Positions 5,540 to 57,180 are shown, counted from the first letter of the stretch. The stretch is 64,000 nucleotides of DNA from Actinophytocola sp. (GCF_045807065.1 NZ_JBJMIE010000042.1:2724-66723); one strand, 5' to 3'. Notes: a model not told the origin generated them from the letters alone. Program-made: numbers and translations.

Positions 5540-5593
5540 CTTCCCACAACTAGCAGGGACAATGGCTGGTGTGAACCCGTCCTGGTGAGGAGA

Positions 5594-6030: not shown

Positions 6031-6110
6031 GCCATTCCGGAACGGTACTGAGGGGCGCCGCGCCGAGCGGTGCCCCTCACCATCACTCGGTAGTACAGGC
6101 ATCCGTTCTG

Positions 6111-6140
6111 CCTTCTTGCCGGGACGCCCCGGCAAGGAGG
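6111..6140 (-). terminator. Intrinsic terminator-like hairpin downstream of the beta-helix gene
   Basis: ccttcttgccggg-acgc-cccggcaaggagg: 13-bp stem with one mismatch, 12 nt past the stop at 6153. Confidence 0.65.
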
Positions 6141-6152
6141 CACGGCAAGAAC

Positions 6153-7223
6153 TCAGGTGTTGCCCCACGTTCGAACCCGCTGTTCGCCGTCGTTGGTGCA
6201 CGGGGCGGCGCCGGAGTAGGTGAGGCTGCCGACGATCATGGCCCAGTTCGACAGGGAGGCGCCGTCGTAGCCGGAGATGTTGTCGTTCTCGTGGAAGAGG
6301 TTGCCTTGTGACGCGCACTCGCGCGGGTGTGTCGAGTCGACGCAGCCGGTGCTGGTGTCGCAGAACCAGTCCGAGAACTGGCCCTTCTGGCCGGTGCGTT
6401 CGAGGACGTTGCCGTAGATGTCGTTGTGGTTGCTGTCGTTGCGGGCGCGGACCGGGTCGCCGCTGACATAGGCGAACTCGTTGTTGACGATGACGTTGTC
6501 GCTGCTGTGGTGCGCGATGTACACGCCGTGCAGCAGCGCCGTCTGGCTGCCGGTGTTCTCCAGGTGCACGAAATGGTTGTCCTGTATGACGTTCCCGCTG
6601 GAGTTCACCAGGTCCACGCCGCCGTAGGCGTAGCCGGCCGACGACCACTTGGAGCCGATGTCGACCAGTTCCATGCCGAAGACCTTGTTGTGGTTGAAGC
6701 CCGCGTCCGCCGGGACGCGGAGGCCGTCCACGGTCTGGTAGCGGCCCGCCAGGGCGATTCCGCCCTCGCTGTAGCGTTCCACCCGCAGATAGTAGAACCG
6801 CAGGCCGCCGTCGCCGCCCTGCGGCATGGTGTCGGGCATCTTGCCTCGCAACCAGTACCCCGCCGTGCCGTTGCCGCGGAAGACGGGGCGTCCCGCGATG
6901 TCGTCGACTCCGTCGCCGTACTCGTAGTCGGTCGGCATGAAGTTCACGGTGTGGCCCGGCACGATGTAGGTCCAGGTGGTCGTCGGGGCGGTGTAGGTGC
7001 CCTGCTTGATCCGGACCTCGACATCTGTCTGTGGCTGCGCCGCGGTCAGCACCTCCTGTGCCCGGGTCAGGGTCCTCACCGGCGCCGAGGCGCTCAGCCC
7101 GGAGTTGGTGTCCGACCCCGCGGGGTCCAGGAACACCTGGAACGCATCGGCGGGCTCCGCTGTGGCTTGACCAGCCCCGCTGAGCAGAAGCGTCAGCACA
7201 GCCGCGATCACGGTCGCGCGCAT
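6153..7223 (-). CDS. Secreted right-handed parallel beta-helix protein (pectin-lyase-like fold)
   Basis: Signal peptide; VFLDPAGSDTNSGLSASAPVRTL (DUF1565-like start); Asn-rich rungs (SSGNVIQDNHF, SSDNVIVNNEF, SNHNDIYGNVL). Confidence 0.8.
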   Translation of the reverse strand: MRATVIAAVLTLLLSGAGQATAEPADAFQVFLDPAGSDTNSGLSASAPVRTLTRAQEVLTAAQPQTDVEVRIKQGTYTAPTTTWTYIVPGHTVNFMPTDYEYGDGVDDIAGRPVFRGNGTAGYWLRGKMPDTMPQGGDGGLRFYYLRVERYSEGGIALAGRYQTVDGLRVPADAGFNHNKVFGMELVDIGSKWSSAGYAYGGVDLVNSSGNVIQDNHFVHLENTGSQTALLHGVYIAHHSSDNVIVNNEFAYVSGDPVRARNDSNHNDIYGNVLERTGQKGQFSDWFCDTSTGCVDSTHPRECASQGNLFHENDNISGYDGASLSNWAMIVGSLTYSGAAPCTNDGEQRVRTWGNT

Positions 7224-7621
7224 CGTTGTCTCCTGTCTGGTTCACGGCTCATGACGCCGTGTCTAGCGCGCGATGCGTTGTCCGGCTTCGTGGTTCGGAC
7301 GCCGGACATCAGGGACCGGACAACGGGTCAGCCGCAGGCGGGGTGGAAGGGCGCTTCGGGGTCGACGACATCGGAGAGCTTCGCCTTGGTAGCACCCCGT
7401 CAAGCTCGGCGATGGCCGGGTTGTAGGCGCCTTTCTGCAGCCTGAAGTTGGCGGCGGTAAGACCTGCCGAGGCGGCCGTCACGTGAATGCTCAGCGCGGC
7501 AGCCGCGTTCATCATGACCCGCTCAGGACAGCCCATGACACCCGGTCCAGACTCGCGCACGCTACCCGTCCACGAAACTTCCGACCGGCGGCGCGTGGGG
7601 GTTTGCGCCATCATTCGGGGT

Positions 7622-7831
7622 ATGGCGGAAAAGTACGAGTACAAGGTTGTCGAGCTTCGGGAGAAGCTGCTCGGCGGCAAGATGTCCGGCGCGAAGCTCG
7701 AAAGCGTGCTCAACGAGCACGCGGCGAAGGGTTGGCAACTGAAGGCCATCACGGCCACGGAGGTGAAGGGCCGCATCGGGCCGGGAGGTGTTGACGGGGT
7801 CCTGGTCACCTTCGAACGCAGGGCGGGCTGA
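7622..7831 (+). CDS. DUF4177-type small protein
   Basis: MAEKYEYKVVELREKLLGG...LESVLNEHAAKGWQL matches the typical YEYKVV...LN.A..GW pattern. Confidence 0.8.
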   Translation: MAEKYEYKVVELREKLLGGKMSGAKLESVLNEHAAKGWQLKAITATEVKGRIGPGGVDGVLVTFERRAG

Positions 7832-7851
7832 GCAGCACGCCGCCCCCGGGG

Positions 7852-8313
7852 TCAGTACTCGTTCTTGATGACGAAGTAGGAGCCGCGGATGGTTCCGGCC
7901 AGCTTCGACTTCTGTCGGGCGAACTTGAACGAGGAGAGTTCGGCGGGGACCTCCATCCCGTCGGAGAGTTTGAAGCCGACGGCTCGTTTGCCGGAGTCTT
8001 CGAGGGTGTACATCACGTTGATCGACAGGCCGTTCTCGTAGAACACGTATGCCATCCGGATGTTCTCGACCTCGAACGCGGTCGCTTCGAGCGGGCGGGC
8101 GGAGATCTCGATGCCGCGTTCCTCCTTGAGGATCCGGGCCACCCAGTCGATGGTCGGCCCGGCGTCGCTCGCGGGCTCGACCGTGAAGACGTGGTCGTAC
8201 TTGTTCTTGAAGTACCGGGCCTCGTTCGCCCGCAGGCCGGCGAGCGCGGGCGCGACCGGCGACGACTCCAGGCCGACGGTCGACACGGTGTCGAAGTCCA
8301 CGGCATGGGGCAT
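7852..8313 (-). CDS. Conserved hypothetical protein
   Basis: Coding-like codon bias, globular composition, GGAG RBS upstream; no motif I can assign. Confidence 0.7.
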   Translation of the reverse strand: MPHAVDFDTVSTVGLESSPVAPALAGLRANEARYFKNKYDHVFTVEPASDAGPTIDWVARILKEERGIEISARPLEATAFEVENIRMAYVFYENGLSINVMYTLEDSGKRAVGFKLSDGMEVPAELSSFKFARQKSKLAGTIRGSYFVIKNEY

Positions 8314-40965: not shown

Positions 40966-41877
40966 TCATTTCGCTGGTGGGGCCTCGGGAAACCCCGGTG
41001 GGAGTGGCAGGGAGTGGTCGAGCTCCGGCTCGCGTGTGTCGACCCAGACCGGCAGGTGGCCGGGTAGACAGGAGGAGAAGTCCGGGAACACCATGACCAT
41101 GTTGATCACGGCGTTGCTCAGGAACCACTGGGCGCGCCCGGGGATCTGCATGTCGCACGCGTGGCCGGGATCTGTGTCGGGCACCGGCAGCATCGGGGGC
41201 GTGAACGGCGTGGCCGACGAGACCGGCGGTCCGATCCGATACAGCAAACGGTCACGCCACGGAACCGAACCCGTGTTGTACAGCCGCACGGGAAGCAGGA
41301 ACAGCTCGCCTCGTGTCATCTCCGCGGCGAGCACGGAGTGGACGCGGTCGACGGCTACGCCGTCATCCGGGCTCGCCTGCCATTGTCCGGCGGTGGCCGC
41401 GCCGCGTTCGAAGCGTTTGCGTGCCTCGTGGAGAATACGCACGCGGTCGACGCCATGACGTGCGAGAATTCCGCGGTACTGGCCCATGTTCGCCGGATTG
41501 GTCGCGCGTGCGACCAAGGTGAGCGGGTATCGCCACCACCGATTGTCGCTGAGCTGGTCCGCCGCACGGGTCCACCGTTCGAGCCGCTGGCGGGGAGTGG
41601 GTACGGGCACTGGCTCGATGGGGAGTCCGGCCATCCGAAGTCCGGCCACGTCGCCTGCCGCACGGCCACTGGCGATCATTGCCGCCGCGATGTCATCCCA
41701 CAGGGCGTCGGGCAGTTCCGAGTCGCCGGACTCGACGTCGCGAAGACGGTGCCGGCTCAGCCGGCCTGCCGCAAGGCCGTTGGCGGCAAGGAGCTCTGTG
41801 AACGCCCGCAACGACATGTCACCGCGTAGCCGCCGCAACGTGTGGCGTCGCTGGTCAGATGAGTACTCATCCGGCAT
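40966..41877 (-). CDS. XRE-like HTH plus NBR1/Ig-like (FW) domain protein
   Basis: LRRLRGDMSLRAF...LSRHRLRDVESG at the N-terminus; C-terminal RLYNTGSVPWRDR...VPDTDPG. Confidence 0.65.
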   Translation of the reverse strand: MPDEYSSDQRRHTLRRLRGDMSLRAFTELLAANGLAAGRLSRHRLRDVESGDSELPDALWDDIAAAMIASGRAAGDVAGLRMAGLPIEPVPVPTPRQRLERWTRAADQLSDNRWWRYPLTLVARATNPANMGQYRGILARHGVDRVRILHEARKRFERGAATAGQWQASPDDGVAVDRVHSVLAAEMTRGELFLLPVRLYNTGSVPWRDRLLYRIGPPVSSATPFTPPMLPVPDTDPGHACDMQIPGRAQWFLSNAVINMVMVFPDFSSCLPGHLPVWVDTREPELDHSLPLPPGFPEAPPAK

Positions 41878-42892
41878 GATCAACCCATTCCGGCAGCGGA
41901 TCGATCAGATCGGCAGGTGCCACGACCACGGTGACGAACAGCCCGAGCAGTGTGGTCGGAAAGCAGTAGGTGCCATCCGGCCACCCTTGCTTCAGACAGG
42001 CCCGGTAGGTGCCAGGGGTTTTCGGTACCCGCATCGGACATTGGATCCGCACGGACGAGCCGGGGTCGACGTCGGGGATGACGATGAACGCGGGCGTCCG
42101 CACTCCGCCCAAGTAACTGCCGACCCGGTACACCACCCGGTGGCGCCAGGGCACCGAGCCGGTGTTGTGCAGTACCCAGCTGGCGACCAGTTGGCTGTCG
42201 GGAGCGACAAGTAGCCCTTCCGGGGTTTCGTCCTCGGCGCTCGACTCGTCCGCCGCCGACGGCCACCACGGCGCGTTGGGGCTTGAACGTACGTCACGCA
42301 ACCCGACGACAGCCTCGGCCTGAGCCGCCAGCACGGCGGACACGCGACCGTCGGTATCGGGGAAGTGTTCGGTGAAGAAGTCGAGTTCTCGACCCGGTGG
42401 CACGTGCGCGGGCAGGTCGCGCAGCCGCCGGGGGACATCCCGGAGCTGGTCGGCCAACAGGGCGTTGCTCCAGGCGTACATGTCCACCAGGTAGCCATCC
42501 GCGCCGAACGCGAGATCGTAGGCGCGAACCAGCCATCCCGGCACCCGGCTGGTGTAGAGCCGGGTCCTGTCGCCGACCTTTGTGAGGTTGATCCACGCGG
42601 GCAGCCGGTAAAGATCTAGCCGTGAATGATGGCCCTTCTCCAAAGCCTGCAGGAAGGCCTCGTCAACCAGATGTGGGTGCGCACGTACGTGCGTTCCTGC
42701 GTCGGCCCAGGTAGCGCCCGGATACAGGGATGTGATCGCCGGGTTCAGCATCGCCACCGCACTCGACAGGCTGTCGCCGGTGGCCACCCGAAGCTGCCGC
42801 ATCGCGGCTGTCAGTTCACGCGCGGCCAGGATGTGCACCGGGGCCGGCGGGCGGGGCCGGCCGCGCAGGACGTGCCGGGGCACTGTGATCAC
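41867..42892 (-). CDS. HTH-like plus NBR1/Ig-like (FW) domain protein
   Basis: GAGGAG RBS and GTG start; AMRQLRVATG...VRAYDLAFGADG; C-terminal DETPEGLLVAP...SWVLHNTGSVPW...IPDVDPG...PKTPGTYRACLK. Confidence 0.68.
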   Translation of the reverse strand: MITVPRHVLRGRPRPPAPVHILAARELTAAMRQLRVATGDSLSSAVAMLNPAITSLYPGATWADAGTHVRAHPHLVDEAFLQALEKGHHSRLDLYRLPAWINLTKVGDRTRLYTSRVPGWLVRAYDLAFGADGYLVDMYAWSNALLADQLRDVPRRLRDLPAHVPPGRELDFFTEHFPDTDGRVSAVLAAQAEAVVGLRDVRSSPNAPWWPSAADESSAEDETPEGLLVAPDSQLVASWVLHNTGSVPWRHRVVYRVGSYLGGVRTPAFIVIPDVDPGSSVRIQCPMRVPKTPGTYRACLKQGWPDGTYCFPTTLLGLFVTVVVAPADLIDPLPEWVDHAG

Positions 42893-43482: not shown

Positions 43483-46326
43483 TCATGGCTGTGGCGGCTT
43501 CTTGGGTCCGGGTAGTCGCGCATACTCGTCGAATGCGTCTGCCCTGACCTGGGTACCGTGCAGGTCCTGGCTGAGCCGCACGGCTTGCTCCGCGTAGTAG
43601 CGCGCCCGGTCCGGTTCACCGTGTAGCCGGTGAGCTCTGGCGAGCGTGGTGAGTGCCCATATCTCCCCGTAGCGATATGTGTGTCTACGGGCGAGGTCGA
43701 GCCCGCGGGTCATGATCGTGATCGCCTGCTCGTAGTTCCCTCGGTCGACATGAATCTTCGCCAGTATCTCGTGTGCGTCGCACTGCCGATAGTGATCGCC
43801 GGTTTTATTATACCAGGACAGCCCTTTCTCGACCATGGTGATGGCCTCGCCGGAATTGCCGAGTTGGTGGTTCGCCTTGCCGAGGTTGACCAGCGCGAAA
43901 GCCTGGCCGAGGGGCACGCCGATGTCCCGGGCGAGGTCCAGTTGTTGTTGAAGGTAGGCGATGGCCTGCTCCGGTTGCCGCTGGGCGAGATGGGTGTGGC
44001 CGAGGTTGCCCAGCGCACGCTGCTCACCGAACCGGTCGCGGATCTCCTGGCAGATGGCCAGTTCCTCGAGAAGGTGGGCACGTGCCTGGTCGAGCTGACC
44101 GATCTGGCTCAGATGCATGGCCAGGTTGCCGTGTGCGTGCGCCAGCGCGACAGAGTGCCCGAGGCGCTCGGCTGCTGCGACGACGCTGTCGAGGAAGCTG
44201 ATCGTGTCGGGTAGGTCGCTCACGCCGGAGTGGAGAAAGCGGTACCAGTGCAGAGCCAGGGCGAGCCCGACGCCGAGGCGGACCTCCTCGGCGGGACCCT
44301 GCCAAGCTTGTAGGACTACCGCGACCATGTTGTGGTGTTGTTCGTCGAGCCACTGCAGCGCTTCGTCGTGGTTGGCCAACGGTTTGGGCGGCGCGGTAAC
44401 CTCGGGTGCGGGGTGGTGCGCTCGATGTGGGTAGACCAGCGCATTGGCTCGACAGGTCGTGGCGATGTAGTAGCTCAGCACGCGAATTATCAGCATGTGT
44501 CGTTCCGCCGGCGCGAGGGTTCTGGTGCCGAGTTCGTGCGCGAAGAGCCTGGTGAGGTCGTGCATGTGCAACCGCCCGGGCTTGGGTTCCTCCATCAGGT
44601 GCGCGTCGAGCAGGCGCTCGGTGATCAGGTCAGCCTCGGCGGGCGTCGTGTCGAGCACTGCGGCGGCGAGGTCCGAGTCGGTGTCGGTGCTGGGTAGCAG
44701 TCCGAAGAGGCAGAGTGCTCGGGCTGCCTTCCGGTCGATGTGGTTGGCACTGTCGTGAAGGGCGGTGTGGCTGACAGCGAGGCTGCTGCGCAAGGCGATG
44801 TCGTCGGCGGCGAGCTCGGTGAGCCGGTGCCGCTCGTTGGCCAGCCGGTCGACCATGTCGTGCACGCGCCAGCTCGGTCGGGCGTTGAGCCGGGCAGCGG
44901 CTACGTGCAGCCCCAACGGCAGATGGTCGCACAGCTCCGCCAGCCGGTAGGTCGCTTCGAACTCCACCGGTCTAATGTCCGGAAGCAGGCTCGCGAGCAT
45001 CATACGGGCCTCGTCGGGAGTGAGCGGACCGAGGACCAGGTGAGTCGCGCCTTCGAGTGCCGCCAAACGGCTTCGGCTGGTGATCAGCACAGCGGTGTCC
45101 GGACCGCCGGGCAGCAGCGGTCGTACCTGACCGGTGCTGGCGGCGTTGTCCAGCATGATAAGCAGCCGCCGCCCGGCCACCACGGTACGCAGCCGTGCGG
45201 CCGCTTCTTCTACGCCAGACGGTATCTCCGTGTTGGCGACGCCCAGCGTCCGCAGCAGGTGGTGCACGGCCTCCACCGCGGACAGCGGCCGCATGCCCGG
45301 TGTCGCGCCACGCAGGTTGACGTGCAGCTGCCCATCCGGGAAACGTGGCATCACCAGATGTGCCGCACGCACGGCGAGCGCCGACTTACCCACTCCTGGC
45401 GCGCCGTGGATGACCACGACCGGTCCCGCCGCCGACGTGGGTTCCGTGGTGAGGAGGCCGGTGAGGGTGGCCACTTCCTGGTCCCGGCCGACAAACGTGT
45501 TCAGGTCACGCGGAAGTTGTCGATGTGTCCGAGTTCCGGTGGCGTGCCCTGCCGCGACACCGGTGTCGGGGGCCGGTGTGGAGATGATCAGCGTCGGGTC
45601 GGCGTTGAGAATTCGTTGGTGCAGTTGCTGCAACGGCTGGCCGGGATCGACGCCGAGCTGTTCTGCGAGCCGCAGTCGGATCTGTTGATAACACTCAAGG
45701 GCCTCAGCCTGCCGTCCACAACGGTACAGCACTGTCATGAGTTGGCTGGCGCACCTCTCGTCCAAGGGGTATGCCGATACTTGCGCCAACACCCGGGCGA
45801 GCAACTCCTTGTGGCGGCCAAGCCGCAGCTCGACGTCGGTCCGGTCAAGCTCGGCGGCCAGCCGTTCCTGGTTCAGCGCGAGCCGGGTGGCATTGATCCA
45901 CGGAGTGTCCAGTCCGCCGAAGGCCTCGCCTCGCCACAGGTTCAGTCCCTGCGCGAAGAGCTCGGCGGCGGCGTCATCAGCTCCAACCGAGCGAGCTTGG
46001 GCGAGTAGGCGTCGACTGACGAACAGATCCACCGACTCGGGCGCGGTCGTCACCACATAGCCGGCCAGTCGCCGTTCTATGCCAACATCTTCCGCACCCG
46101 CCAGCACCTGCCGAAGACGTGACACATAGCTGGCAAGAGAACGGTCGGCCCGCGCCGGCAACCGCTCCCCCCACACGCGCTCGGCGAGGACCCCGGTCGG
46201 TACCGCACGGCCAACATCGACCAGCAGAGCCACCAACACGGCCCGCTGACGGGCATGACCAGGGTCAACCTGCCGTCCGTCGACCCACGCCTCGACATCG
46301 CCCAGAACTCTGAATCTCGTCGCCAC
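43483..46326 (-). CDS. AfsR/SARP family regulator (wHTH-BTAD-NB-ARC-TPR)
   Basis: FRVLGDVEAW, QRAVLVALLV, LNLWRGEAF, YPLDER, FVGRDQE, Walker A GAPGVGKS, LIMLDNA, HLPLGL, MHDLTR, TPR tail. GTG 46326 is the likely start. Confidence 0.93.
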   Translation of the reverse strand: MATRFRVLGDVEAWVDGRQVDPGHARQRAVLVALLVDVGRAVPTGVLAERVWGERLPARADRSLASYVSRLRQVLAGAEDVGIERRLAGYVVTTAPESVDLFVSRRLLAQARSVGADDAAAELFAQGLNLWRGEAFGGLDTPWINATRLALNQERLAAELDRTDVELRLGRHKELLARVLAQVSAYPLDERCASQLMTVLYRCGRQAEALECYQQIRLRLAEQLGVDPGQPLQQLHQRILNADPTLIISTPAPDTGVAAGHATGTRTHRQLPRDLNTFVGRDQEVATLTGLLTTEPTSAAGPVVVIHGAPGVGKSALAVRAAHLVMPRFPDGQLHVNLRGATPGMRPLSAVEAVHHLLRTLGVANTEIPSGVEEAAARLRTVVAGRRLLIMLDNAASTGQVRPLLPGGPDTAVLITSRSRLAALEGATHLVLGPLTPDEARMMLASLLPDIRPVEFEATYRLAELCDHLPLGLHVAAARLNARPSWRVHDMVDRLANERHRLTELAADDIALRSSLAVSHTALHDSANHIDRKAARALCLFGLLPSTDTDSDLAAAVLDTTPAEADLITERLLDAHLMEEPKPGRLHMHDLTRLFAHELGTRTLAPAERHMLIIRVLSYYIATTCRANALVYPHRAHHPAPEVTAPPKPLANHDEALQWLDEQHHNMVAVVLQAWQGPAEEVRLGVGLALALHWYRFLHSGVSDLPDTISFLDSVVAAAERLGHSVALAHAHGNLAMHLSQIGQLDQARAHLLEELAICQEIRDRFGEQRALGNLGHTHLAQRQPEQAIAYLQQQLDLARDIGVPLGQAFALVNLGKANHQLGNSGEAITMVEKGLSWYNKTGDHYRQCDAHEILAKIHVDRGNYEQAITIMTRGLDLARRHTYRYGEIWALTTLARAHRLHGEPDRARYYAEQAVRLSQDLHGTQVRADAFDEYARLPGPKKPPQP

Positions 46327-46566
46327 AGCGCGTCCTCTGATAGACAGCACCCGGATAACCACGGGTATCCCAGTCATCAACTGTTCAACAATCTCACAAC
46401 AGTTTGCCGACATCGAGCGGGCAACATGGTGGAGCGCTGGTGCGGCACCGTTCAGCAGCGCGGAACCGGCCCGGTCCGAACCGCTCGGGTAGGTCGACGA
46501 CCGAGGACGAAACGACCATCACCTGGCAGGCATCGAAAGTATGCGGAGACGTACGTGCTGACACTG

Positions 46567-48585
46567 ATGACGGTGTTGCTGGTCGCTGTGGTCGGCATCA
46601 GGCGACGTCGGCGCACAACCGCTGGCAAGCCGCGGTTACGAGCTCGGACTCGATCCGTCATCCTGGTGTCGGCGATTCTCGCGTTCAACATGACACCGGG
46701 CACCTCCGCCGAGGCAAAGAGTCGTCATTCCATTCCAGACATACCGAACCCGTGCACCGATATTCTCGGCAAGATCCCCAGTATGCCCTACCTGCCCGAG
46801 GCGTGCGACAAGGTCTTCGACGCGGTTGACCGAGCCGTGAGGAATGCGTGTACCGACGCGCCGGACATACAGCGACCAGGTGCGGGTCTGGTGGGTGCGG
46901 TCGACCCGTCACGAGGCCACGGGAGTGAGGGCAGCGTGTACCGCGACTACGGCTACGCGGGCATGGTCTGGCAGGTGTACGACGACAACTGCGTTCTCCC
47001 GAAGCCGGTCACCGACCCGATGACGACCATTGACACCTGGACCGGAAACCAGTTGTTCAACCTGGGAAAGTTCGTGGTGGGAGTCACGAACTCACTACAC
47101 TACGCGCTGTACGACGGTCGCATCCTCGAGCGTCTGAACAACAAGGTGAAAGACCTCGCCCAACAGGTGTTCGACAACATCTACCTCAAGCTCGCCGGCT
47201 TGTTCCTGCTGGTTCTCGCCGTACTCATGTTCCGGCATATCTGGCGCGGTGACCTGGCCTCGGTGTCGAAGCGAGCACTTTTCGCGCTCTGCGGGATGTG
47301 GTTCGCGTCGTCGACTGTGGTAATGGTGGGCAACTACGGCCGGATAGACGACACGATCGTCGGAGTCACCACGGGCATCCAGAACGGCTTTGTCGAGCCG
47401 GAGAAGAAGGGTGACGCCAGGGACACACTGCCAACCGAGCTGCACACGAAGGTGGTGTACGACAACTGGTTGCGCGGTGAGTTCGGCAGTCCGGACACCG
47501 AGCAGGCGCGGAAGCTCGGCCGCACACTGCTCGACGCGCAGGCGTGGACCTGGGAACAGGAGGCGCAGAGCACCAACGAGAAATCCAGGAACCAGACAGA
47601 GAACGGGAAGAAGTCGCGGTACAAGCAGTTCGTCTACCAGCTCGGGCCTACCGCCGGGACCTTCACCGGCACGGACGGATCTCGCATGGGTGCCGGGTTC
47701 CTGTCATTCCTGCAAGCGCTCGTCTACTCACTGTTCCAACTGTTCGCCAAGTTCGCCGTGCTGCTGGCCCAACTGCTCCTGCGGATTCTCACACTCACCG
47801 CTCCGATCATCGGCTTGGTCGCCGTGGTCCACCACGAGATCCTTCGACGGGTTGGCAAGGCGGCCGCCGCAGTGGTGCTCAACGTCCTCGTACTCGCGAT
47901 ACTGGCCGGCGTGCACTCCAAGTTCCTGCAACTGATCTTCGGCCCTGGCATGAACCTGTCCCTCACGGTCCAAATGCTACTCGGGGCCATCGTCACACTG
48001 GTGTTCATCCGCGCTGGGCGCCCACTGCAACGCATCTGGCAGATGGTCGACCTCTCCATGGGCGCGGTGGGCATCTCCAACCCGACAGCCGAGCGCACCC
48101 GCCGGACCCGACCCAATCGCCCATCGCACAACTCCGCGTCGGCACAAGGTGGGTTCTGGAGCGGAGTCCGCGAAAGAGCAAACGGCAAGGAGAAAACCAG
48201 GACGGTCACGGCCGGACGGCCGGAGGCACGACCACCCGTCCCCGCTGTCGCCCAACCCCGCCACACGGGTAACAGCCCTGCCGGGGCGACCAGGTCATCG
48301 ACTTCGAACGCGCGGCGGCGTCGAACCGTGATCCTCGAAGGAAACGACAAGGCAGCCAACAGGCGAAATGTCCACGACGATGTCCACGCAACACCAAAGA
48401 GGGCGATGATGACGCCGAACACAGCACCCGCCGGTGATCGTGACTACGGTCGCCCGAAGAACCTTGACTACAAAGGTCCCCGGACACAGCTTGTCTACCG
48501 TCCGTCGACCGGTCGGGTCGAGCCAGCTCCCAGCCAACAGCCACGAAGTACGTTGAGCGACAGCGAAGCGCCACAGACTCGATGA
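46567..48585 (+). CDS. VirB6/TrbL-like membrane protein of the actinomycete conjugation-like gene family
   Basis: YGYAGMVWQVYD, IDTWTGNQLFNLGK, YDNWLRGEFG, DAQAWT, multiple TM helices, basic/Pro-rich disordered tail. Start uncertain. Confidence 0.62.
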   Translation: MTVLLVAVVGIRRRRRTTAGKPRLRARTRSVILVSAILAFNMTPGTSAEAKSRHSIPDIPNPCTDILGKIPSMPYLPEACDKVFDAVDRAVRNACTDAPDIQRPGAGLVGAVDPSRGHGSEGSVYRDYGYAGMVWQVYDDNCVLPKPVTDPMTTIDTWTGNQLFNLGKFVVGVTNSLHYALYDGRILERLNNKVKDLAQQVFDNIYLKLAGLFLLVLAVLMFRHIWRGDLASVSKRALFALCGMWFASSTVVMVGNYGRIDDTIVGVTTGIQNGFVEPEKKGDARDTLPTELHTKVVYDNWLRGEFGSPDTEQARKLGRTLLDAQAWTWEQEAQSTNEKSRNQTENGKKSRYKQFVYQLGPTAGTFTGTDGSRMGAGFLSFLQALVYSLFQLFAKFAVLLAQLLLRILTLTAPIIGLVAVVHHEILRRVGKAAAAVVLNVLVLAILAGVHSKFLQLIFGPGMNLSLTVQMLLGAIVTLVFIRAGRPLQRIWQMVDLSMGAVGISNPTAERTRRTRPNRPSHNSASAQGGFWSGVRERANGKEKTRTVTAGRPEARPPVPAVAQPRHTGNSPAGATRSSTSNARRRRTVILEGNDKAANRRNVHDDVHATPKRAMMTPNTAPAGDRDYGRPKNLDYKGPRTQLVYRPSTGRVEPAPSQQPRSTLSDSEAPQTR

Positions 48586-51540: not shown

Positions 51541-52245
51541 TCAGCCCCGGAGGATCGGTGGGTACAGCACGGTCGCCGAACCACGCCGGTAAAGCATTGC
51601 CGGGCGGCCGCCGTTCTTGATGCTCTGCTCGCCCGTGGGGTCGAGGAAGTTCTCGACGCTGGTCACCTTGCGGTGGAAGTTGCGCGGGTCCAACTGCTGC
51701 CCCCACACGATCTCGTAGACGTTCCGCAGCTCGGTGACGGTGAACACCGGTGGGCAGAATGCGGTGGCCAGGTTGGTGTATTCGAGCTTGCTCCGTGCCC
51801 GCTCGACGGCGTCGCCGACGATCTTCTTGTGGTCGAAAGCGAGCGGTCGTCTTGTTCTGAGGATCTTGTCGACGGGTTTCCATTCCGCCGCCTGTGCGTC
51901 ACCGCCTGCCGCCGGTAACGGCAGGTCAGGCACCAGCGCGAGATAGCACACCGTGACGACGCGGCGCCGTGGATCACGGTCAGGAGCGCCGTAGGTGCGC
52001 AGCTGTTCCAGGTGCAGGCGCTCCACCGCCAGCCCGGTCTCCTCTGCGAGCTCCCGCGCCGCCGCGGTGTCGATGTCCTCGTCCTCGGATGCCAGGAAGC
52101 CGCCGGGTAACGCCCACGTCCCGAGGAACGGCTCGATGCCACGACGTACGAGTAATATCTGCAGCTGTCCTGACTGGACGGTGAGTATTGCCAGGTCGAC
52201 TGCGACGGCCACCGTGGGGATCGTCCAGCCGTCTTCGGATGTCAT
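51541..52245 (-). CDS. nrtR: NrtR-family Nudix-related transcriptional regulator
   Basis: VAVDLAIL...WALPGGF...AAARELAEETG...LEQLRTYGAPDRDPR...LAFDH..I, then wHTH FTVTELRNVYE...LDPRNFHRKV...GGRPAMLYR. Confidence 0.9.
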   Translation of the reverse strand: MTSEDGWTIPTVAVAVDLAILTVQSGQLQILLVRRGIEPFLGTWALPGGFLASEDEDIDTAAARELAEETGLAVERLHLEQLRTYGAPDRDPRRRVVTVCYLALVPDLPLPAAGGDAQAAEWKPVDKILRTRRPLAFDHKKIVGDAVERARSKLEYTNLATAFCPPVFTVTELRNVYEIVWGQQLDPRNFHRKVTSVENFLDPTGEQSIKNGGRPAMLYRRGSATVLYPPILRG

Positions 52246-52259
52246 GCGTGCAGTCTAGG

Positions 52260-52314
52260 TTATCGTCAACGTGACGACAAGCAATGATCGACATTACCGT
52301 CATGTTGACGAGAA
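52260..52314. promoter_or_regulatory. Two 21-bp palindromes (TT-N2-CGTCA-N3-TGACG-N2-AA), putative NrtR operators
   Basis: TTATCGTCAACGTGACGACAA at 52260-52280 and TTACCGTCATGTTGACGAGAA at 52294-52314, in the 103-bp divergent intergenic region. Confidence 0.8.
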
Positions 52315-52348: not shown

Positions 52349-53254
52349 ATGGGGGACCGTAAAAATCGGAGCGAGCCAATGATCGTGATCCTCACCGCAC
52401 TGCAACGAGAATTCACAGCGGTTCGACGACACCTGACCGACGTGCGAACGCATCGGCACAACGCTGGCACACTGTTCGAAGTCGGGTCGCTCGCGGACCA
52501 CCCGGACCGGCAGGTCGGGCTGGCGGTCATCGGCGAGGGCAACGCGCCGGCGGCGACCATCACCGAGCGGGCGATCAACGAGTTCTGCCCGACTGCCGTG
52601 ATGTTCGTCGGGATCGCCGGAGCGCTGCACGGGTGGCTCCAGCTGGGTGACGTCGTGGTGGCGACGCGGGTTTACGGCTACCACGGCGGAAGCAGCCGAG
52701 ACGACGGGTTCAAGGCTCGGCCACGTGCCTGGGACAGCTCACACGAGCTCGAACAGGTGGCCCGGCATGTCAACCAGGATGATGTCCGGTGGTCGGCGAT
52801 GTCGGGCAAACCGACGGTCTATTTCTGCCCCATCGCCGCCGGCGAGGTACTTTTGGAGTCTTCGGCGTCACCCGTCGCGAAGCAGTTGCACGACCACTAC
52901 AACGACGCGGTGGCCGTCGAGATGGAAAGCGCCGGAGTCGCCCAGGCGAGCCAGCTGAACCTGTCGACGCTCTCCATCACGATCCGCGGCATCAGCGACT
53001 TCGCCAGCAGGACGAAGCGGTTCACCGACCGGCAGGGGATGCCGCAGGTCGCGGCCGACAACGCCGCCGCGTTCGCGGTGGCCGTCATCTCCGGAATCGT
53101 GGACACCGGAGAACGGTCCGACCGGGGTGGGGCGGACGAGAAGCGCTATCGCGTCAAGAACGAGGCCACGGGCAACGCGAACGTCGTCGCGCAGATCGGT
53201 GTGGTGCACGGCAGTGTCCAGTTCGGCTCGGACACGGGCAAGGGCGGATCGTGA
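52349..53254 (+). CDS. PNP_UDP_1 / MTA-SAH nucleosidase-family effector with C-terminal RHIM/BASS-like motif
   Basis: VILTALQREF, FVGIAG, GDVVV, IAAGEVL, AVEMESAGVA, IRGISDFA; tail VKNEATGNANVVAQIGVVHGSVQF. Confidence 0.88.
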   Translation: MGDRKNRSEPMIVILTALQREFTAVRRHLTDVRTHRHNAGTLFEVGSLADHPDRQVGLAVIGEGNAPAATITERAINEFCPTAVMFVGIAGALHGWLQLGDVVVATRVYGYHGGSSRDDGFKARPRAWDSSHELEQVARHVNQDDVRWSAMSGKPTVYFCPIAAGEVLLESSASPVAKQLHDHYNDAVAVEMESAGVAQASQLNLSTLSITIRGISDFASRTKRFTDRQGMPQVAADNAAAFAVAVISGIVDTGERSDRGGADEKRYRVKNEATGNANVVAQIGVVHGSVQFGSDTGKGGS

Positions 53255-55464
53255 TGCCTGACCCCAAGCCGGCCGGCGGTTCACAGGCGACCAACACCGC
53301 GACCGGAAACGCGACGGTTGATGCCCAGATCGGTTACGTTGAAGGTGACGCAGTCTTCCACAAGCACGAAACCATCTACCAAGTCGCCGCCGACGACTCC
53401 CCCGAGAAGAAGTTCCAAGTGGCACGCAACCTCATCGACGGCGGAGTACCGAGGCCGGCGGAGGATCTCATCAGGCAGGCGCTCAACGTGGGGTATGCCT
53501 CCACGGAGGTCGCGTACTACTACGCCATCTCCGTCCTGAGTGAACGTTCGTTGAACCAACTGGGAGCCAACGAGCTGGACAAGCTCGAACACGCCATACG
53601 TGTGGCCGAGCGCGAGCCGCACGATGAATGGTGGGCGGCCATCGTGGTCATCGGCGAGCTGGTGCAGTGCGCAGTCGATCCCGACAGCGCACCCAATCCG
53701 CGACACGCCGCGCTGCGGGTCGTACTCGACGACTTCCGGGCACTCGTTCAGCAACGGCAGGCCGAGATCACGCGGCACCTCGACATGATCTTCAGCGGAG
53801 CGGTGCAGGAGGAGCTCGACCGGCTGAACTCCGCGACCGTCGCCGCGGAACGTGCGAAGGGCAACCGAGCAGACCGCGCGTGGAAGTACTTCCACCCCGA
53901 TCCGACGTCACCGCGACGCGGCACGCCGCCCCCGTTGCGGGACGGAGAGCCACGGTCGTTCGCATGGGCCGTGACAGCGTTCGGCGTCGTCGTGTTCGGC
54001 CTGTTCGCCACACTGGACGTCAGGACCTCTGGAATGTCCTGGCGAAGCCTGTGGCCCCGAATGCTGTTCGTGGTTGGCGCGCTGGTCGTCGTATGGTCCG
54101 GGTCGGAAGCGTTGACCTCCTACATCCGCAGGCGGATGCGGGAAGCCGAGCACGGCAGGAACCCGGCGGAGTTCGACGAGCACGAGGAGCTCGGCATAGC
54201 GCTCAACGCCACGCAGAAGTTCGCGTCCGCGACGTGGAAACGGGTGCGCTACTACTTCGCCGTTCGCGGGCCGATCAGGAACACGGGCGAATGGGCGATG
54301 AAGACGAAGGGTATCCAGGCCGCGCTGCACTGGCGGCTGGTACGGCTGTACAGCGCTGGACGAGTGGAGGTGACCACTCTCAACTGGCTGATCCGGTGGT
54401 ACGCCAAGCAGACCGCCGAGCAGTGGCGAGCCGGGAGCCTGCCCGATTTTCGCCGGACGCTCCGCCCGAGTCCGTCCACGGTCCTGTCGGTGGGAGTTGG
54501 TGCGGTCGTCGCGGCCAGTGGCGCCGTACTGCAGTTCGTGAGCTCCGTTGCGTTGGGCTTTCTGCCCACGCTGCTCTCTGTCCCGCAGGTGCTGACGGCC
54601 TGTGCTGTCGGCGGGGGTGTCATGTACCTGCTGGGCGATCACCGTGCGAGAGCTCGGGAGCAGGAGGTGCTCGACGAGCTCTTCGAAGGTGAGAAGCGCG
54701 AGTTCCACCGGTGGGAGCAGCGCCTGCGGGATCGGCCGACGGACTCCGAGATGGCACACTGGCTGGAGTACGACAAGTCGCACCTGAAGACCCTGGCGAT
54801 GCGCCGCTGCGAGCTGAACAGCCGGGAGATCATCGCTCATGTCGTGCTGACGGCCGGTAAACCACGTGCCATGCGCGCCAGGGTCGTCAACGGTCCACCC
54901 CGTTTCTCCAGATACGTCGTGCTGGTCTTCCTCCTCACCGAGCACGGCGTCCGGGAGGTCGACGTCGACCTGAACTTCCTGACGGGTGCGATCTACGACG
55001 AACGGCGCACGTCGTTCCGATACGACGCGCTCGCGTCCGCTCGGGTGCTCGAGAAGGGCTTCCAGTCGGCCGAAGGCCAGCAGCACGTCGTACTCCTCGG
55101 GCGGGACGTGCACCTGACCGACAAGTCGGCGCTCGTGATCAGCCGGACCTTCGAGCTGGCCCTGGTCAATGACCAGACGATCGAAGTCGTCGTGGACAAC
55201 TACGAAGGGCTGATCGACGACAGCACCGCCGAGGACAAGTCCGCTCTGGACACAATGGCGCTCGATTCGTCCGGTGTCGCGATCGCGCTGCACATTCTCG
55301 AAGCGGTCGCCGCTGAGGGCCGGGAGTGGATCACACGGGAGCAGGACCGCCGGACCCGGCGGTGGCGCGAGTGGGAACGTGGTCGGCGTCGCATTGTCGC
55401 GCTCATCGGCAGACCGTGGCCGCTGACCCTCGCGTCGGGGAGAGGCCCGGCAGAGGCGTCCTAG
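53254..55464 (+). CDS. Membrane protein with N-terminal RHIM/BASS-like motif, helical region, about four TM helices and a soluble C-terminal domain
   Basis: ATG overlaps the upstream TGA. N-terminal ATNTATGNATVDAQIGYVEGDAVF; TPR-like KFQVARNLIDGG...YYYAISVL; hydrophobic segments; no P-loop seen. Confidence 0.78.
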   Translation: MPDPKPAGGSQATNTATGNATVDAQIGYVEGDAVFHKHETIYQVAADDSPEKKFQVARNLIDGGVPRPAEDLIRQALNVGYASTEVAYYYAISVLSERSLNQLGANELDKLEHAIRVAEREPHDEWWAAIVVIGELVQCAVDPDSAPNPRHAALRVVLDDFRALVQQRQAEITRHLDMIFSGAVQEELDRLNSATVAAERAKGNRADRAWKYFHPDPTSPRRGTPPPLRDGEPRSFAWAVTAFGVVVFGLFATLDVRTSGMSWRSLWPRMLFVVGALVVVWSGSEALTSYIRRRMREAEHGRNPAEFDEHEELGIALNATQKFASATWKRVRYYFAVRGPIRNTGEWAMKTKGIQAALHWRLVRLYSAGRVEVTTLNWLIRWYAKQTAEQWRAGSLPDFRRTLRPSPSTVLSVGVGAVVAASGAVLQFVSSVALGFLPTLLSVPQVLTACAVGGGVMYLLGDHRARAREQEVLDELFEGEKREFHRWEQRLRDRPTDSEMAHWLEYDKSHLKTLAMRRCELNSREIIAHVVLTAGKPRAMRARVVNGPPRFSRYVVLVFLLTEHGVREVDVDLNFLTGAIYDERRTSFRYDALASARVLEKGFQSAEGQQHVVLLGRDVHLTDKSALVISRTFELALVNDQTIEVVVDNYEGLIDDSTAEDKSALDTMALDSSGVAIALHILEAVAAEGREWITREQDRRTRRWREWERGRRRIVALIGRPWPLTLASGRGPAEAS

Positions 55465-55616: not shown

Positions 55617-55952
55617 GTGATTGAGCCGGTTCTCATGTCGATCGCCGCCGCACTCGCCGGGAAGTCCGTGACATCGCTCTACGAGTTGGTGAAGCGCAGG
55701 TTCACCGGTCGCGGGGAGGCCGCGGCGGCGCTCGAGAAGGCGTCGGACGCGGCTCCCGGCTCGCCCGAGGTGGCGGCCTTGGCCGCACACCTCGCTGCCG
55801 CGGAAGTGGAGAACCCGGCCTTTGGCCTCGAGATGCGACACATCTGGCGGCAGGCAACCGCCGACCGCCGCGGTGTGGTCAACGTGATCACGGGAAACGT
55901 GTCCGGCAAGGTAGTTCAGGCGGGGGACATCGAGGGCGGGATCAGGTTCTAG
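55617..55952 (+). CDS. Small Bell/HeLo-like helical protein with C-terminal RHIM/BASS-like motif
   Basis: Hydrophobic N-terminal helix MIEPVLMSIAAALAGKSVTSLYELVKRRF, helical bundle, tail VVNVITGNVSGKVVQAGDIEGGIRF*; GAAGGG RBS before GTG. Confidence 0.78.
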   Translation: MIEPVLMSIAAALAGKSVTSLYELVKRRFTGRGEAAAALEKASDAAPGSPEVAALAAHLAAAEVENPAFGLEMRHIWRQATADRRGVVNVITGNVSGKVVQAGDIEGGIRF

Positions 55953-56159: not shown

Positions 56160-56543
56160 CGCATGGCGGCGGGCTCTACGCCTACATCCAGCCCGATGGC
56201 AGCTGGATGATCAACAACACCGGGTTCCTCGTCGGCGCGGGCGGTGTCGTCGCGATCGACTCGTGCTTGACGGAACGGCGGACCCGCGCCTTCCTCGACA
56301 GGGTCCGGACCGTCAGCGGTGGTTCCGTCCACACGCTGCTCAACACCCACAGCCATCCCGACCACACCGCCGGGAACGGCTGGTTCCCCGGTGCCACGAT
56401 CATCGCCCCAGGAACGCACCCGCGCCGACCTGCTCGCGGCGAGAGGCGCACCGCCACTGCGCGACATCTTCGAACCGATCGACGAGGGCGAACTGCCACC
56501 CGCCCCACCGTTCCTGACCTACACCGACGGCGTCACGCTGTAA
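56160..56543 (+). pseudogene. Truncated, frameshifted MBL-fold metallo-hydrolase (cyclase-like)
   Basis: YAYIQPDGSWMINNTGF...LLNTHSHPDHTAGN (HxHxDH), frameshift near 56408, stop after GVTL. Confidence 0.78.
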
Positions 56544-56760
56544 CATCACCACCGACCGAAACGCGAGCGTCTTTCGGATCAGTCCGCTGCCTCCGTACAG
56601 CGCGCACCTCGGGATTCTCGCGGTCCGGCCGCTGGTGTGCCGGCAGCCGCCGTTCGAGCGTCCCGCACGGCGGCCGCCGAGATCCATGTGGCAGGCCGGA
56701 GCGGGTCGCTCGCGCACGTGACACCTGTCCGGCACGGCTTGGGATCAGTGGTGTCAATCA

Positions 56761-56932
56761 ACCTGGATGACGTCGAACAACGGCTCGCCGCGTTCGAGCA
56801 ACGCTACGACGCGACCGCGAAACCGTTCCAGTGGAAGTTCACCCGCACCGAACTCCACGACCTACTCGACCGGATCAACCAGCACGAACAACAACACGAC
56901 ACCACCGACCTTCCAACCGCCGCGAGATCAAC
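56761..56932 (+). mobile_element. IS630-family transposase C-terminal remnant
   Basis: VEQRLAAFEQRYDATAKPFQWKFTRTELHDLLDRI resembles the IS630 C-terminal PF.W motif. Confidence 0.65.
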
Positions 56933-56957
56933 CCCCGAAGAACTTCCAATTCGACCA

Positions 56958-57180
56958 CTAAGCCAACCTGATTTTTGGCCTTCGCGCGGGTGATCCGTTG
57001 TCCCATGGTGGTCTCGGCCACCGCAGGTAGGCGCGGGCGATCTCAGACACGGTCAGATCGCCGACCATGCGCAGCGTCAGTGCCACGCGGGTCTCCAGCG
57101 CGGGGTGGCAGCAGGTGAAGATCAGCCGGAGGCGGTCGTCGTCGATGGCGTCGAGGGGTTCGGGCAGCTGGCCGAACAGG
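56958..57180 (-). pseudogene. Internal fragment of an ECF sigma factor (ECF42/DUF6596-type)
   Basis: IDDDRLRLIFTCCHPAL...VALTLR...EIARAYL / EATMGQRITRAKAKI, with a frameshift. Confidence 0.75.

Follow-up and report, generated by a model that had tools for sequence, protein, structure and literature searches.

The question raised by this locus is whether a short N-terminal motif of the kind carried by NLR receptors can be attached to transmembrane (TM) helices in place of an NLR ATPase and, if so, to what such a protein would signal. The locus was analysed within a 64,000-nt window from Actinophytocola sp. (GCF_045807065.1 NZ_JBJMIE010000042.1:2724-66723). For the 736-aa membrane protein encoded in the ORF 53254-55464 (+), searches of Pfam, NCBIfam and PADLOC yielded zero matches; Pfam searches with 66 diverse family members likewise gave nothing consistent, just scattered matches to families of TM regions, so that membership in a known housekeeping family, a concern of the first-pass annotation, is not indicated. 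No AAA, NACHT or NB-ARC match was obtained with Pfam for this protein or the 66 diverse members, and a regular expression search for Walker A (G....GK[ST]) agrees with the annotation that the motif is missing, with no GK[ST] anywhere in the protein either. Pfam, a profile search of PDB and Foldseek detect no recognisable switch (NTPase) or sensor fold. The short motif is located at residues 13-35, where NLRs carry theirs, as the annotation had it, and the start codon lies upstream of it, the next in-frame start being codon 56; a start downstream of the motif, another concern, can thus be set aside. The parts of the protein are as follows.

53254..55464, plus strand: four-TM protein without a known domain, 736 aa
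53290..53358 (residues 13-35), plus strand: N-terminal motif TNTATGNATVDAQIGYVEGDAVF, delineated by identity to the nucleosidase tail
53401..53889 (residues 50-212), plus strand: all-helical N-terminal domain, possibly TPR-like (AlphaFold secondary structure; weak Foldseek TPR matches)
53950..54120 (residues 233-289), plus strand: hydrophobic hairpin 1, TM1-TM2 (AlphaFold; hydropathy)
54169..54459 (residues 306-402), plus strand: helical cytoplasmic middle domain with a conserved WLIRWHA (AlphaFold; family conservation)
54472..54639 (residues 407-462), plus strand: hydrophobic hairpin 2, TM3-TM4 (AlphaFold; hydropathy)
54736..55404 (residues 495-717), plus strand: the most conserved part, a helix, a nine-stranded β domain and three helices (conservation; AlphaFold)

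The hydrophobic segments have Kyte-Doolittle 19-residue peaks of 2.09, 1.75, 1.92 and 1.82, at positions kept in all 20 of 20 close homologues despite the variable sequence of these regions. The AlphaFold model contains two long helical hairpins (residues 228-301 and 407-490), and the stretches quoted for the two hydrophobic hairpins in the first-pass annotation are present. Lysines and arginines are in excess in the flanks (4 and 5 at hairpin 1, 3 and 4 at hairpin 2) over the short loops (2 and 0), which assigns the N-terminus and every soluble domain to the cytoplasm. From hydropathy and this charge bias, the protein is predicted to be integral, N-in, with four TM helices, and the motif to be cytoplasmic, as had been anticipated. 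The β-rich C-terminal domain described previously is recovered as nine strands at residues 526-648 in two AlphaFold models (pLDDT about 60-85 in this region; 70.8 for the whole protein and 69.4 for a separate model of residues 466-722). The region described as TPR-like is indeed all-helical, but its likeness to TPR is weakly supported (Foldseek E about 0.02-0.2). Against PDB, Foldseek finds nothing at E<=0.001 for the whole-protein model, with weak matches to TPR proteins and nothing else; for residues 466-722, the best match is at E 0.035, to unrelated proteins, and a profile search of PDB sequences with the family gives no match. Two specific folds were considered for the β domain and gained no convincing support: there is no Cap15, the 2TM-β-barrel protein, among the Foldseek PDB matches, and the bacterial PH-like domain is suggested by nothing better than matches to hSac2, SIN1, SSRP1 and Rtt106 at E 0.1-0.4.

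The membrane-protein gene is preceded by a gene for a PNP_UDP-fold nucleosidase, with the ATG of the former overlapping the TGA of the latter by one base (cgTGATGcc).

52349..53254, plus strand: PNP_UDP-fold nucleosidase, the presumed effector, 301 aa (Pfam PNP_UDP_1 6.6e-28, residues 12-247)
53159..53224 (residues 271-292), plus strand: C-terminal motif of the nucleosidase NEATGNANVVAQIGVVHGSVQF, delineated by alignment to the membrane-protein head

The nucleosidase matches the PADLOC profile 'Effector PN-superfamily' at 3.6e-22. Its VEME and ISD motifs, which we take to contain the catalytic Glu and Asp residues on the basis of what is known of MTA/SAH nucleosidases, align with those of the E. 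coli MTA/SAH nucleosidase. Judging by these similarities, the enzyme has an immune-type effector fold with intact catalytic motifs.

The head of the membrane protein (residues 13-35, NTATGNATVDAQIGYVEGDAVF) and the tail of the nucleosidase share 14 of 22 residues, with a Smith-Waterman score of 63 compared with 21.1±4.2 (maximum 44) in 5000 shuffles. Across the family, the motif follows the consensus N-x-A-x-[DG]-x-A-x-V-x-x-Q-[IV]-G-V-[VI]-H-G-D, in which Q25, G27 and G31 are nearly invariant, and among the 66 diverse members it is enriched in N (4.0-fold), Q (2.4-fold), V (2.1-fold) and G (1.8-fold) and depleted of P (0.04-fold), L (0.12-fold) and K (0.43-fold). The two copies are versions of a single peptide of 22-25 residues that is rich in N, Q, G and V and has Q-[IV]-G at its core; Pfam RHIM (PF12721) is not matched at E<=1 by any of the three proteins of the locus (hmmscan). 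Compared with locus L060, the 32 motif codons differ by 14 synonymous and 2 non-synonymous changes, and compared with L059 by 10 and 2, respectively; this synonymous excess indicates that the motif is translated and under purifying selection. In the AlphaFold model, which does not include the partner, the N-terminal motif has a pLDDT of 29-36, with short strands at low confidence, and is accordingly predicted to be flexible. In the nucleosidase, the motif lies at or just past the end of the catalytic domain. In most clades, it is internal and is followed by an 85-aa helical domain, unlike the classical terminal motifs; the 'class B' nucleosidases, examined over their last 150 residues, have an internal motif ahead of a helical tail domain.

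The two copies evolve in concert. In 20 pairs, the mean score of a head against the tail of its own partner is 53.7, compared with 29.8 against the heads and 27.4 against the tails of other clades, and none of 20000 permutations reaches the mean of the true pairs. The sharing of the motif between head and tail was seen again in 19-20 further pairs. This was the check proposed in the first-pass annotation, and it came out positive: the motif changes in step with the neighbour, whose domain is exchangeable. The motif drifts from clade to clade, yet the two copies remain similar; for this reason, the most likely arrangement, as far as can be judged from the sequences, is in-register stacking into a parallel cross-β assembly of the amyloid type.

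On the other side of the nucleosidase, a regulator gene is transcribed divergently, and the intergenic region contains twin palindromes.

51541..52245, minus strand: NrtR-like regulator (Pfam NUDIX 8.4e-21, NrtR_WHD 1e-15)
52260..52280, no strand: operator-like site 1, a 21-bp palindrome TTATCGTCAACGTGACGACAA (repeat and inverted repeat)
52294..52314, no strand: operator-like site 2, a 21-bp palindrome TTACCGTCATGTTGACGAGAA, 34 bp from site 1

The locus thus displays the features of NrtR regulation, namely a Nudix domain joined to a winged helix and twin 21-bp palindromes ahead of the putative target genes. The palindrome core CGTCAnnnTGACG occurs in 3 copies in the 64-kb window compared with 0.26 expected, and an operator-like site is found in the same intergenic position in ten other loci, namely L001, L002, L005, L039, L042, L043, L045, L046, L059 and L060. 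NrtR regulators normally control NAD metabolism, and the best NCBIfam matches of the nucleosidase are MTA/SAH nucleosidase and futalosine hydrolase, which would suit an NrtR-controlled enzyme of nucleoside or NAD salvage held on a membrane scaffold and unconnected with conflict. Such a housekeeping function appears very improbable, given that the nucleosidase scores far below every NCBIfam equivalog cut-off (e.g., 78.7 vs 169) and is recognised by the PADLOC effector profile, and that the distribution of the unit, described below, is patchy, with flanks that are never alike. Furthermore, we know of no precedent for this motif architecture in metabolism.

An exhaustive profile search identifies 589 representatives of the membrane-protein family at 50% identity. 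Of 101 genomes of the same taxonomic family, 27 contain a member, as do 9 of 300 other genomes of the class; the module is missing from about 73% of the former and about 97% of the latter sample. A phylum-wide single-protein search of 400 genomes gave no match to the membrane protein, which is a weak negative because two candidates were scored per genome. The three-gene unit of regulator, nucleosidase and membrane protein is found throughout filamentous actinobacteria; in 34 of 36 contexts, the family member is accompanied by an NrtR-like regulator and a PNP_UDP enzyme with a matching motif, the regulator by itself being counted next to the pair in 33 of 36. The flanks of the unit are unrelated and never the same between contexts; some contain transposases, a DUF2397/DUF2398/SbcC cluster, STAND NTPases, or PIN and caspase-like genes. 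In a few contexts the partner is swapped and the motif is kept, the replacement being a small SARP regulator (wHTH-BTAD) in one case (L061) and a miniprotein consisting of the motif and a helical domain in two.

For the SARP partner, release from a membrane tether is at least as good an explanation as activation by an amyloid. Under constitutive tethering, the motif would dock the partner (nucleosidase or, in L061, SARP) in an inactive state on the membrane protein until a membrane signal frees it, with no prion-like templating. Partner sequestration of this kind is known from anti-sigma factors and from PtsG-Mlc, and membrane release is a well-known way of controlling regulators such as a wHTH-BTAD protein. 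Also compatible with tethering are the lack of an oligomerisation switch in the membrane protein (by Pfam and the Walker A search), the translational coupling of the two genes, which suggests equimolar synthesis, and the helical domain of most nucleosidases, which could add a conventional interface. However, ordinary heteromeric interfaces evolve by complementary rather than identical changes, and here both copies keep the same sequence; moreover, the composition of the motif is that of amyloid signalling motifs, and a flexible, undocked motif is predicted, albeit in a model without the partner. We regard tethering as a rather unlikely, although credible, alternative to amyloid-type templating.

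Another alternative concerns the role of the membrane protein itself. Some family members end in an α/β-hydrolase or histidine phosphatase domain of their own, so a pure receptor role does not apply throughout the family. The membrane protein might act as executioner or co-effector and, on assembly, damage the membrane, the motif bringing together two toxic activities and sensing being performed elsewhere, for example, by transcriptional induction through the NrtR-like protein. The four TM helices and these C-terminal enzyme domains are compatible with such a role, as is the dedicated regulator with its conserved operators, which suggests that the trigger could be transcriptional. Nevertheless, in known systems the N-terminal motif is on the receptor and the C-terminal motif on the effector, and Foldseek relates the membrane protein neither to known pore formers nor to 2TM-β-barrel effectors. 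In addition, the roughly 500 cytoplasmic residues are far better conserved than the TM segments, which suggests binding or regulatory domains and not a simple pore. We regard an executioner role as improbable.

The preferred reading, a membrane-embedded receptor that acts by amyloid-type templating, also draws on comparison with characterised systems. The closest are the bacterial Bell-BASS/BASS-NLR pairs, in which, as here, the genes are adjacent and overlapping with the effector first (by 4 bp in a published Bell/NLR pair), filamentous actinobacteria serve as hosts, effector domains are exchangeable, and a motif of ~22-25 aa, N/Q/G/V-rich and P/L/K-poor, is shared by the effector C-terminus and the partner N-terminus; BASS motifs are enriched in N, Q, G and V and depleted of K, P and L (Dyrka et al. 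2020, bioRxiv 10.1101/2020.01.06.895854). Unlike BASS-NLR, the partner here contains no NB-ARC, NACHT or Pfam-recognised repeats and has four TM helices instead, and, unlike in the Bell-BASS pairs, the effector is a PNP_UDP enzyme and the unit includes a dedicated NrtR-like regulator. [quoted passage not shown] 2020, bioRxiv 10.1101/2020.01.06.895854). The RHIM/BASS3/PP motif resembles the one described here, by eye and in composition only, in its central Q-[IV]-G, flanking N/G and hydrophobic alternation (AQIG, QQIG, VQAG).

In the E. coli antiphage system Bab/Agp, the BASS11 motif links a small effector to a non-NLR receptor (Ibarlosa et al. 2024, bioRxiv 10.1101/2024.11.07.622273). Like the membrane protein, Agp is not an NLR and has the motif at its start, ahead of a helical-repeat region; however, Agp is soluble (TPR-GreA/B-C-PIN), whereas the protein here has four TM helices and no Pfam match to GreA/B or PIN. 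The effector of Bab/Agp is a Bell-type pore former, whereas the main effector here is an enzyme, although a Bell-like protein is encoded nearby in the window. Because Agp is already published, the claim of the first-pass annotation that the locus would extend amyloid signalling beyond NLRs was overstated; the module is a new variant of a known principle, not a new principle. Coupling of PNP_UDP effectors to receptors by amyloid motifs is experimentally documented in fungi (Wojciechowski et al. 2022, PMC9815663), and in the PNP_UDP-PUASM/NACHT-WD40 pairs, as here, a single C-terminal motif of the PNP_UDP protein matches the N-terminus of the adjacent product. The motifs themselves differ (FxGxGxQxxGxGxF in PUASM vs N-x-A-x-[DG]-x-A-x-V-x-x-Q-[IV]-G-V-x-H-G-D here), the fungal partner is an NLR, and the kingdoms are different. 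Bacterial PNP domains serve as ATP-nucleosidase immune effectors in CBASS (Cap17) and Detocs (DtcC) (Rousset et al. 2023, bioRxiv 10.1101/2023.01.24.525353). There too a PNP-fold effector is subordinate to a separate sensing module, and the nucleosidase here matches the PADLOC PN-effector HMM; control is exerted by a cyclic nucleotide or a phosphorelay through fused domains in Cap17/DtcC, whereas here it would involve a short shared peptide. The new elements are a membrane-embedded, enzyme-less partner and a PNP_UDP effector from bacteria.

Several lines of evidence thus lead to the amyloid reading: the identity, concerted evolution, BASS-like composition and terminal place of the motif, its disorder in the model and purifying selection; the gene order and stop/start overlap, which match the published Bell/NLR pair, and the immune-type effector fold; and the recurrence of the unit amid unrelated flanks, its patchy distribution, the swapping of partners with the motif kept, and the Agp precedent. 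On balance, we somewhat favour a three-gene accessory module in which an NrtR-like repressor, a nucleosidase and a four-TM protein act by amyloid-type templating. The unit resembles a switch for immunity or stress that has not been described before and that does without the usual NLR ATPase; its role in defence is inferred from genomic context and analogy. The NrtR-like protein would bind the twin palindromes and, responding to a ligand, control the operon, and the membrane protein would take the place that the NLR has in the known amyloid pairs, as a receptor. A cue at the membrane, or one perceived via the helical or β domains, could cluster the membrane protein, whereupon the N-terminal motifs would fold into a cross-β nucleus. 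This nucleus could then template the motif of the nucleosidase, gather the enzyme domains and switch on nucleotide cleavage. By analogy with the Cap17/Detocs PNP effectors and the fungal PNP_UDP-PUASM/NLR pairs, the outcome might be growth arrest or abortive infection.

In the lineage of this window, a second output may come from a Bell-like miniprotein whose motif is related.

55617..55952, plus strand: Bell-like small protein, 111 aa, with a hydrophobic N-terminal helix; lineage-specific accessory
55881-55949, plus strand: related C-terminal motif of the Bell-like protein NVITGNVSGKVVQAGDIEGGIRF, with weak likeness to the other two motifs

The likeness of this motif to the other two is weak (shuffle frequencies of 96/5000 and 22/5000). 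The Bell-like family comprises 72 clusters, and adjacency to the TM-protein gene is confined to the window and L059, along with three inferred close relatives. An obligatory third component was considered and rejected, since the Bell-like protein is missing from most contexts and its motif does not track that of the pair.

Bacterial amyloid signalling so far involves NLR-type ATPases plus one soluble non-NLR receptor. The module would add a partner that is embedded in the membrane, the first PNP_UDP effector in bacteria to act via such a motif, and a metabolite-type regulator within the unit. The concerted evolution of the motif leads to a falsifiable prediction, in-register co-assembly, and the swapped partners amount to a natural experiment that bears on activation versus sequestration by the motif. 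More tentatively, and doubtful at this stage, the membrane protein could be a hub without an NTPase, in which prion-like cross-β templating serves as a general output connector, relaying a signal sensed at the membrane through the N-terminal peptide to interchangeable partners (a nucleotide-degrading enzyme, a small helical and possibly membrane-attacking domain, a SARP activator), the whole unit being gated by an ADP-ribose-type metabolite through the NrtR-like repressor; if so, amyloid templating would be a mode of signal transduction that reaches gene regulation. With hundreds of clusters at 50% identity, the family is common in one actinobacterial family, and naming it would annotate many 'hypothetical' genes.

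The four-TM membrane protein encoded in this high-GC window carries close to its N-terminus a peptide that recurs at the C-terminus of the nucleosidase encoded immediately upstream. The genes concerned are the following:

51541-52245, minus strand: NrtR-like regulator (Nudix and NrtR winged-helix domains), divergent, upstream of the nucleosidase gene
52349-53254, plus strand: nucleosidase (Pfam PNP_UDP, 6.6e-28; PADLOC 'Effector PN-superfamily', 3.6e-22)
53254-55464, plus strand: membrane protein, 736 aa

The ATG of the membrane protein gene has one base in common with the TGA of the nucleosidase gene (cgTGATGcc). The matching peptide spans residues 13-35 of the membrane protein (the head, NTATGNATVDAQIGYVEGDAVF), within the first ~35 residues as the first-pass annotation had it, and aligns without gaps with residues 271-292 of the nucleosidase (the tail, NEATGNANVVAQIGVVHGSVQF), with 14 of 22 positions identical; this local alignment scores 63, compared with 21.1±4.2 (maximum 44) in 5000 shuffles. 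The protein starts upstream of the motif: over 32 motif codons, 14 synonymous and 2 non-synonymous changes separate the window from the homologous locus L060, and 10 and 2, respectively, separate it from the locus L059, a codon-level pattern that shows translation; no further in-frame start occurs before codon 56. The consensus across 66 diverse members is N-x-A-x-[DG]-x-A-x-V-[GDE]-x-Q-[IV]-G-V-[VI]-H-G-D, with Q25, G27, and G31 nearly invariant. Relative to the remaining protein, the motif columns are rich in N (x4.0), H (x2.6), Q (x2.4), V (x2.1), and G (x1.8) and poor in P (x0.04), L (x0.12), R (x0.19), and K (x0.43), the same compositional bias as in bacterial amyloid signaling motifs (BASS; Dyrka et al., bioRxiv 10.1101/2020.01.06.895854).

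The two motifs evolve in concert. Among 19 pairs, the mean score of true partners was 53.6 vs. 32.2 for non-partners, and none of 20000 permutations attained the observed mean. In a second comparison, of 20 motif cores delimited by hand, a head resembled the tail of its own partner (53.7±10.1) about as closely as the heads of its own clade (51.6), with both heads (29.8) and tails (27.4) of other clades far below. Pair-specific matches include TTVGQQNEINYG / TTIGQQNGVNYG, GTVGIQAGGDV / GTVGIQAGGNV, and STVGAQAGTVHGDV / TWVGAQAGVVHGDV. The likeness among related loci follows from shared descent; that one peptide is kept by two genes while drifting between clades is not explained by it. The expectation that homologs change the N-terminal motif together with that of the neighbor is borne out both by the true-partner scores and by the swapped partners described below. 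In-register parallel β-stacking, the structural principle of amyloid signaling motifs, demands identical rather than complementary sequences, and the identity of head and tail thus points to stacking of this amyloid type.

The hydrophobic hairpins proposed earlier are indeed present. Four stretches, with 19-residue Kyte-Doolittle scores of 1.75-2.09, keep their positions in 20 of 20 close homologs while their sequences change, and the AlphaFold model, of moderate confidence, folds them into a pair of long helical hairpins (228-301 and 407-490). Clusters of K/R flank both hairpins, ahead of TM1 and TM3 and behind TM2 and TM4, and are absent from the short loops, which predicts a cytoplasmic location for the N-terminus and for each of the three soluble regions. 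This bias around the hydropathy-defined helices would place the motif on the anticipated side of the membrane; no export signal is evident on reading the sequence of the nucleosidase, which carries the same motif. As originally noted, the protein lacks Walker A (GxxxxGK[ST]), and the C-terminal third is beta-rich, two independent models of moderate confidence showing nine β-strands and, after them, helices; the TPR-like character assigned to the helical region (residues 50-212) is tentative and comes from weak Foldseek matches. The protein has no Pfam, NCBIfam or PADLOC matches, and its nearest homologs (74-80% identity) are labeled Actinophytocola, family Pseudonocardiaceae.

The nucleosidase scores far under every NCBIfam equivalog threshold; its VEME and ISD motifs align with their counterparts in E. 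coli MTA/SAH nucleosidase. A purely metabolic unit is the least probable of the readings considered here. The 103-bp intergenic region contains two 21-bp palindromes, spaced 34 bp, resembling operators; the window has 3 copies of their core CGTCAnnnTGACG vs. 0.26 expected, and ten further loci have this core at the equivalent intergenic place. In one clade of homologous loci, extra NrtR/Nudix-like ORFs, one full and one half-length, are located 5' of the nucleosidase gene and add to or replace the divergent regulator:

L039:3528-4857, L040:4461-5788, L041:5786-7040, L079:3601-4858: extra NrtR/Nudix-like ORFs

A word-indexed search yielded 20 clusters of the membrane protein family, and an exhaustive profile search 589 representatives at 50% identity (368 with E<=1e-30). 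In the members listed (150 of the 589 representatives), the length is 650-780 aa in nearly all, and a variable leader of 5-25 residues precedes a similar motif. The source genome has a single copy. Of 101 genomes from the same taxonomic family, 27 (covering 21 of 60 genera) encode a member, as do 9 of the 300 genomes sampled elsewhere in the class. Among 36 distinct contexts sampled and scanned in six frames with purpose-built HMMs, a PNP_UDP gene lies directly upstream of the membrane protein gene in 34, mostly overlapping it, and 33 of these also include an NrtR-like gene; Pfam upheld the assignments on a sample. The flanking genes differ at each context, and include transposases (L059, L060, L064), a DUF2397/DUF2398/SbcC cluster (L005), STAND NTPases (L004), and PIN and caspase-like genes (L064). 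In the clade of the window, the regulator is divergent and the motif is at the end of the nucleosidase; in most other clades, the operon opens with the regulator gene, and the nucleosidase has the motif right after its catalytic domain, ahead of an 85-aa helical domain whose C-terminus reads ...LKRLRGL...AA.ITAV.GLS.

These observations modestly favor a model in which the membrane protein occupies the place of an NLR. A cue at the membrane, or one sensed via the cytoplasmic helical or β domains, would cluster the membrane protein; the N-terminal peptides would build a cross-β nucleus that templates the motif copy of the nucleosidase, whose catalytic domains would be drawn together and activated. 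Amyloid formation, the direction of signaling, the trigger, the substrate, and a role in defense are all presumed in this model. Assembly is known to activate the immune PNP domains of CBASS, Detocs, and NLR fusions (bioRxiv 10.1101/2023.01.24.525353), and in fungi, PNP_UDP effectors are linked by amyloid motifs (PMC9815663). That the membrane protein is itself the executioner appears unlikely.

The gene next to the module encodes a Bell-like protein:

55617-55952, plus strand: Bell-like protein, 111 aa, hydrophobic N-terminal helix, C-terminal peptide NVITGNVSGKVVQAGDIEGGIRF

This peptide is weakly similar to head and tail (shuffles match its scores in 96 of 5000 and 22 of 5000 cases, respectively). 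The Bell-like family (72 clusters in Actinophytocola, Plantactinospora, Actinokineospora, and Amycolatopsis) has an almost invariant tail, GVVNQITGNVSGKVVQARDI.GGI.F, regardless of the neighbor. In Plantactinospora (L006:4548-5900), a 450-aa protein encoded upstream of the Bell-like gene carries a comparable peptide, NDISGTVHGVVVQAGHIDDLHL, at its own C-terminus, and this locus showed no matching receptor. Further 3' (56207-56993) are a metallo-β-lactamase-fold ORF that is truncated (Pfam Lactamase_B, limited to the first 76 residues) and then a 118-aa ORF with no Pfam matches that resembles the C-terminal end of an IS630-type transposase, which suggests that the stretch immediately 3' of the module is decayed or rearranged. 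On the other side, 6 kb upstream, lies an AfsR/SARP-type regulator (43483-46413, minus strand; Trans_reg_C, BTAD, NB-ARC/AAA_16, TPR), its end overlapped by ~160 bp by a candidate ORF (46255-48585, plus strand; 776 aa, no Pfam matches, G+C 61-64% vs. 66-75% around). The ORF at 40966-42892 contains an N_BRCA1_IG (NBR1-type Ig-like) domain (Pfam, 3.5e-09).

The window pair resembles BASS pairs in motif, composition, gene arrangement and effector but lacks the NLR. The Q-[IV]-G core is similar to that of RHIM/BASS3, although Pfam RHIM is not matched, and the domain content differs from that of Agp. A 2020 list of bacterial non-Bell BASS effectors does not include PNP_UDP (bioRxiv 10.1101/2020.01.06.895854), and no description of the three-gene unit or of a transmembrane amyloid-motif partner was found in the full-text literature, within incomplete coverage. 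The suggestion that the protein would extend amyloid signaling beyond NLRs is overstated, because a non-NLR amyloid receptor has already been described; hence the pair is not a new category.

The partner of the membrane protein is exchangeable. In L061, the membrane protein (5001-8270) has a C-terminal α/β-hydrolase, and the product of the upstream gene (3950-4957) is 335 aa long and matches Pfam BTAD. We read this product as a small SARP, taking its N-terminus for a winged-helix DNA-binding domain; it ends FSNSDQVKVGSQIYRNDGSLIIH, vs. the head FVNRDKVKVGGQFNVMYGDVHIY. A second α/β-hydrolase gene lies 3' of the membrane protein gene. A transcription factor joined via an amyloid-type motif would be unusual. 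The SARP partner favors the main rival reading, in which a permanent tether keeps the partner sequestered and a signal then sets it free; the homotypic motif speaks against such a tether, which we regard as possible but improbable. In two other loci, the upstream gene encodes a miniprotein that consists of an N-terminal motif and the helical tail domain, and nothing else:

L063:2293-2661, L064:3627-4004: motif and helical-domain miniproteins, 122-125 aa, upstream of the membrane protein gene
C-termini of nucleosidases in L049, L050, L052-L058, L077, L078, L080, L082-L085: helical tail domain, ~85 aa, unannotated

The latter domain (pattern …VLALKRLRGLVADIA.LAAKVAALITAV.GLS, last helix hydrophobic) trails the motif in most nucleosidases and could be a membrane-targeting output domain because the motif-first, hydrophobic-helix-last layout mirrors Bell/HeLo effectors. 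For the orphan family member in L044, no partner gene was found within 9 kb; a 1036-aa BTAD-AAA_16 gene is directly upstream, and the SARP-type genes near this locus and the window module may be a coincidence in SARP-rich genomes. In one genome (L039:6774-11173), one nucleosidase gene precedes two tandem membrane protein paralogs whose motif variants differ, and the gene just 3' of them codes for an NB-ARC/TPR protein. Given this partner swapping, the membrane protein is the constant element, which the motif links to variable outputs, a modularity also found in NLRs and the effectors that amyloid motifs link to them.
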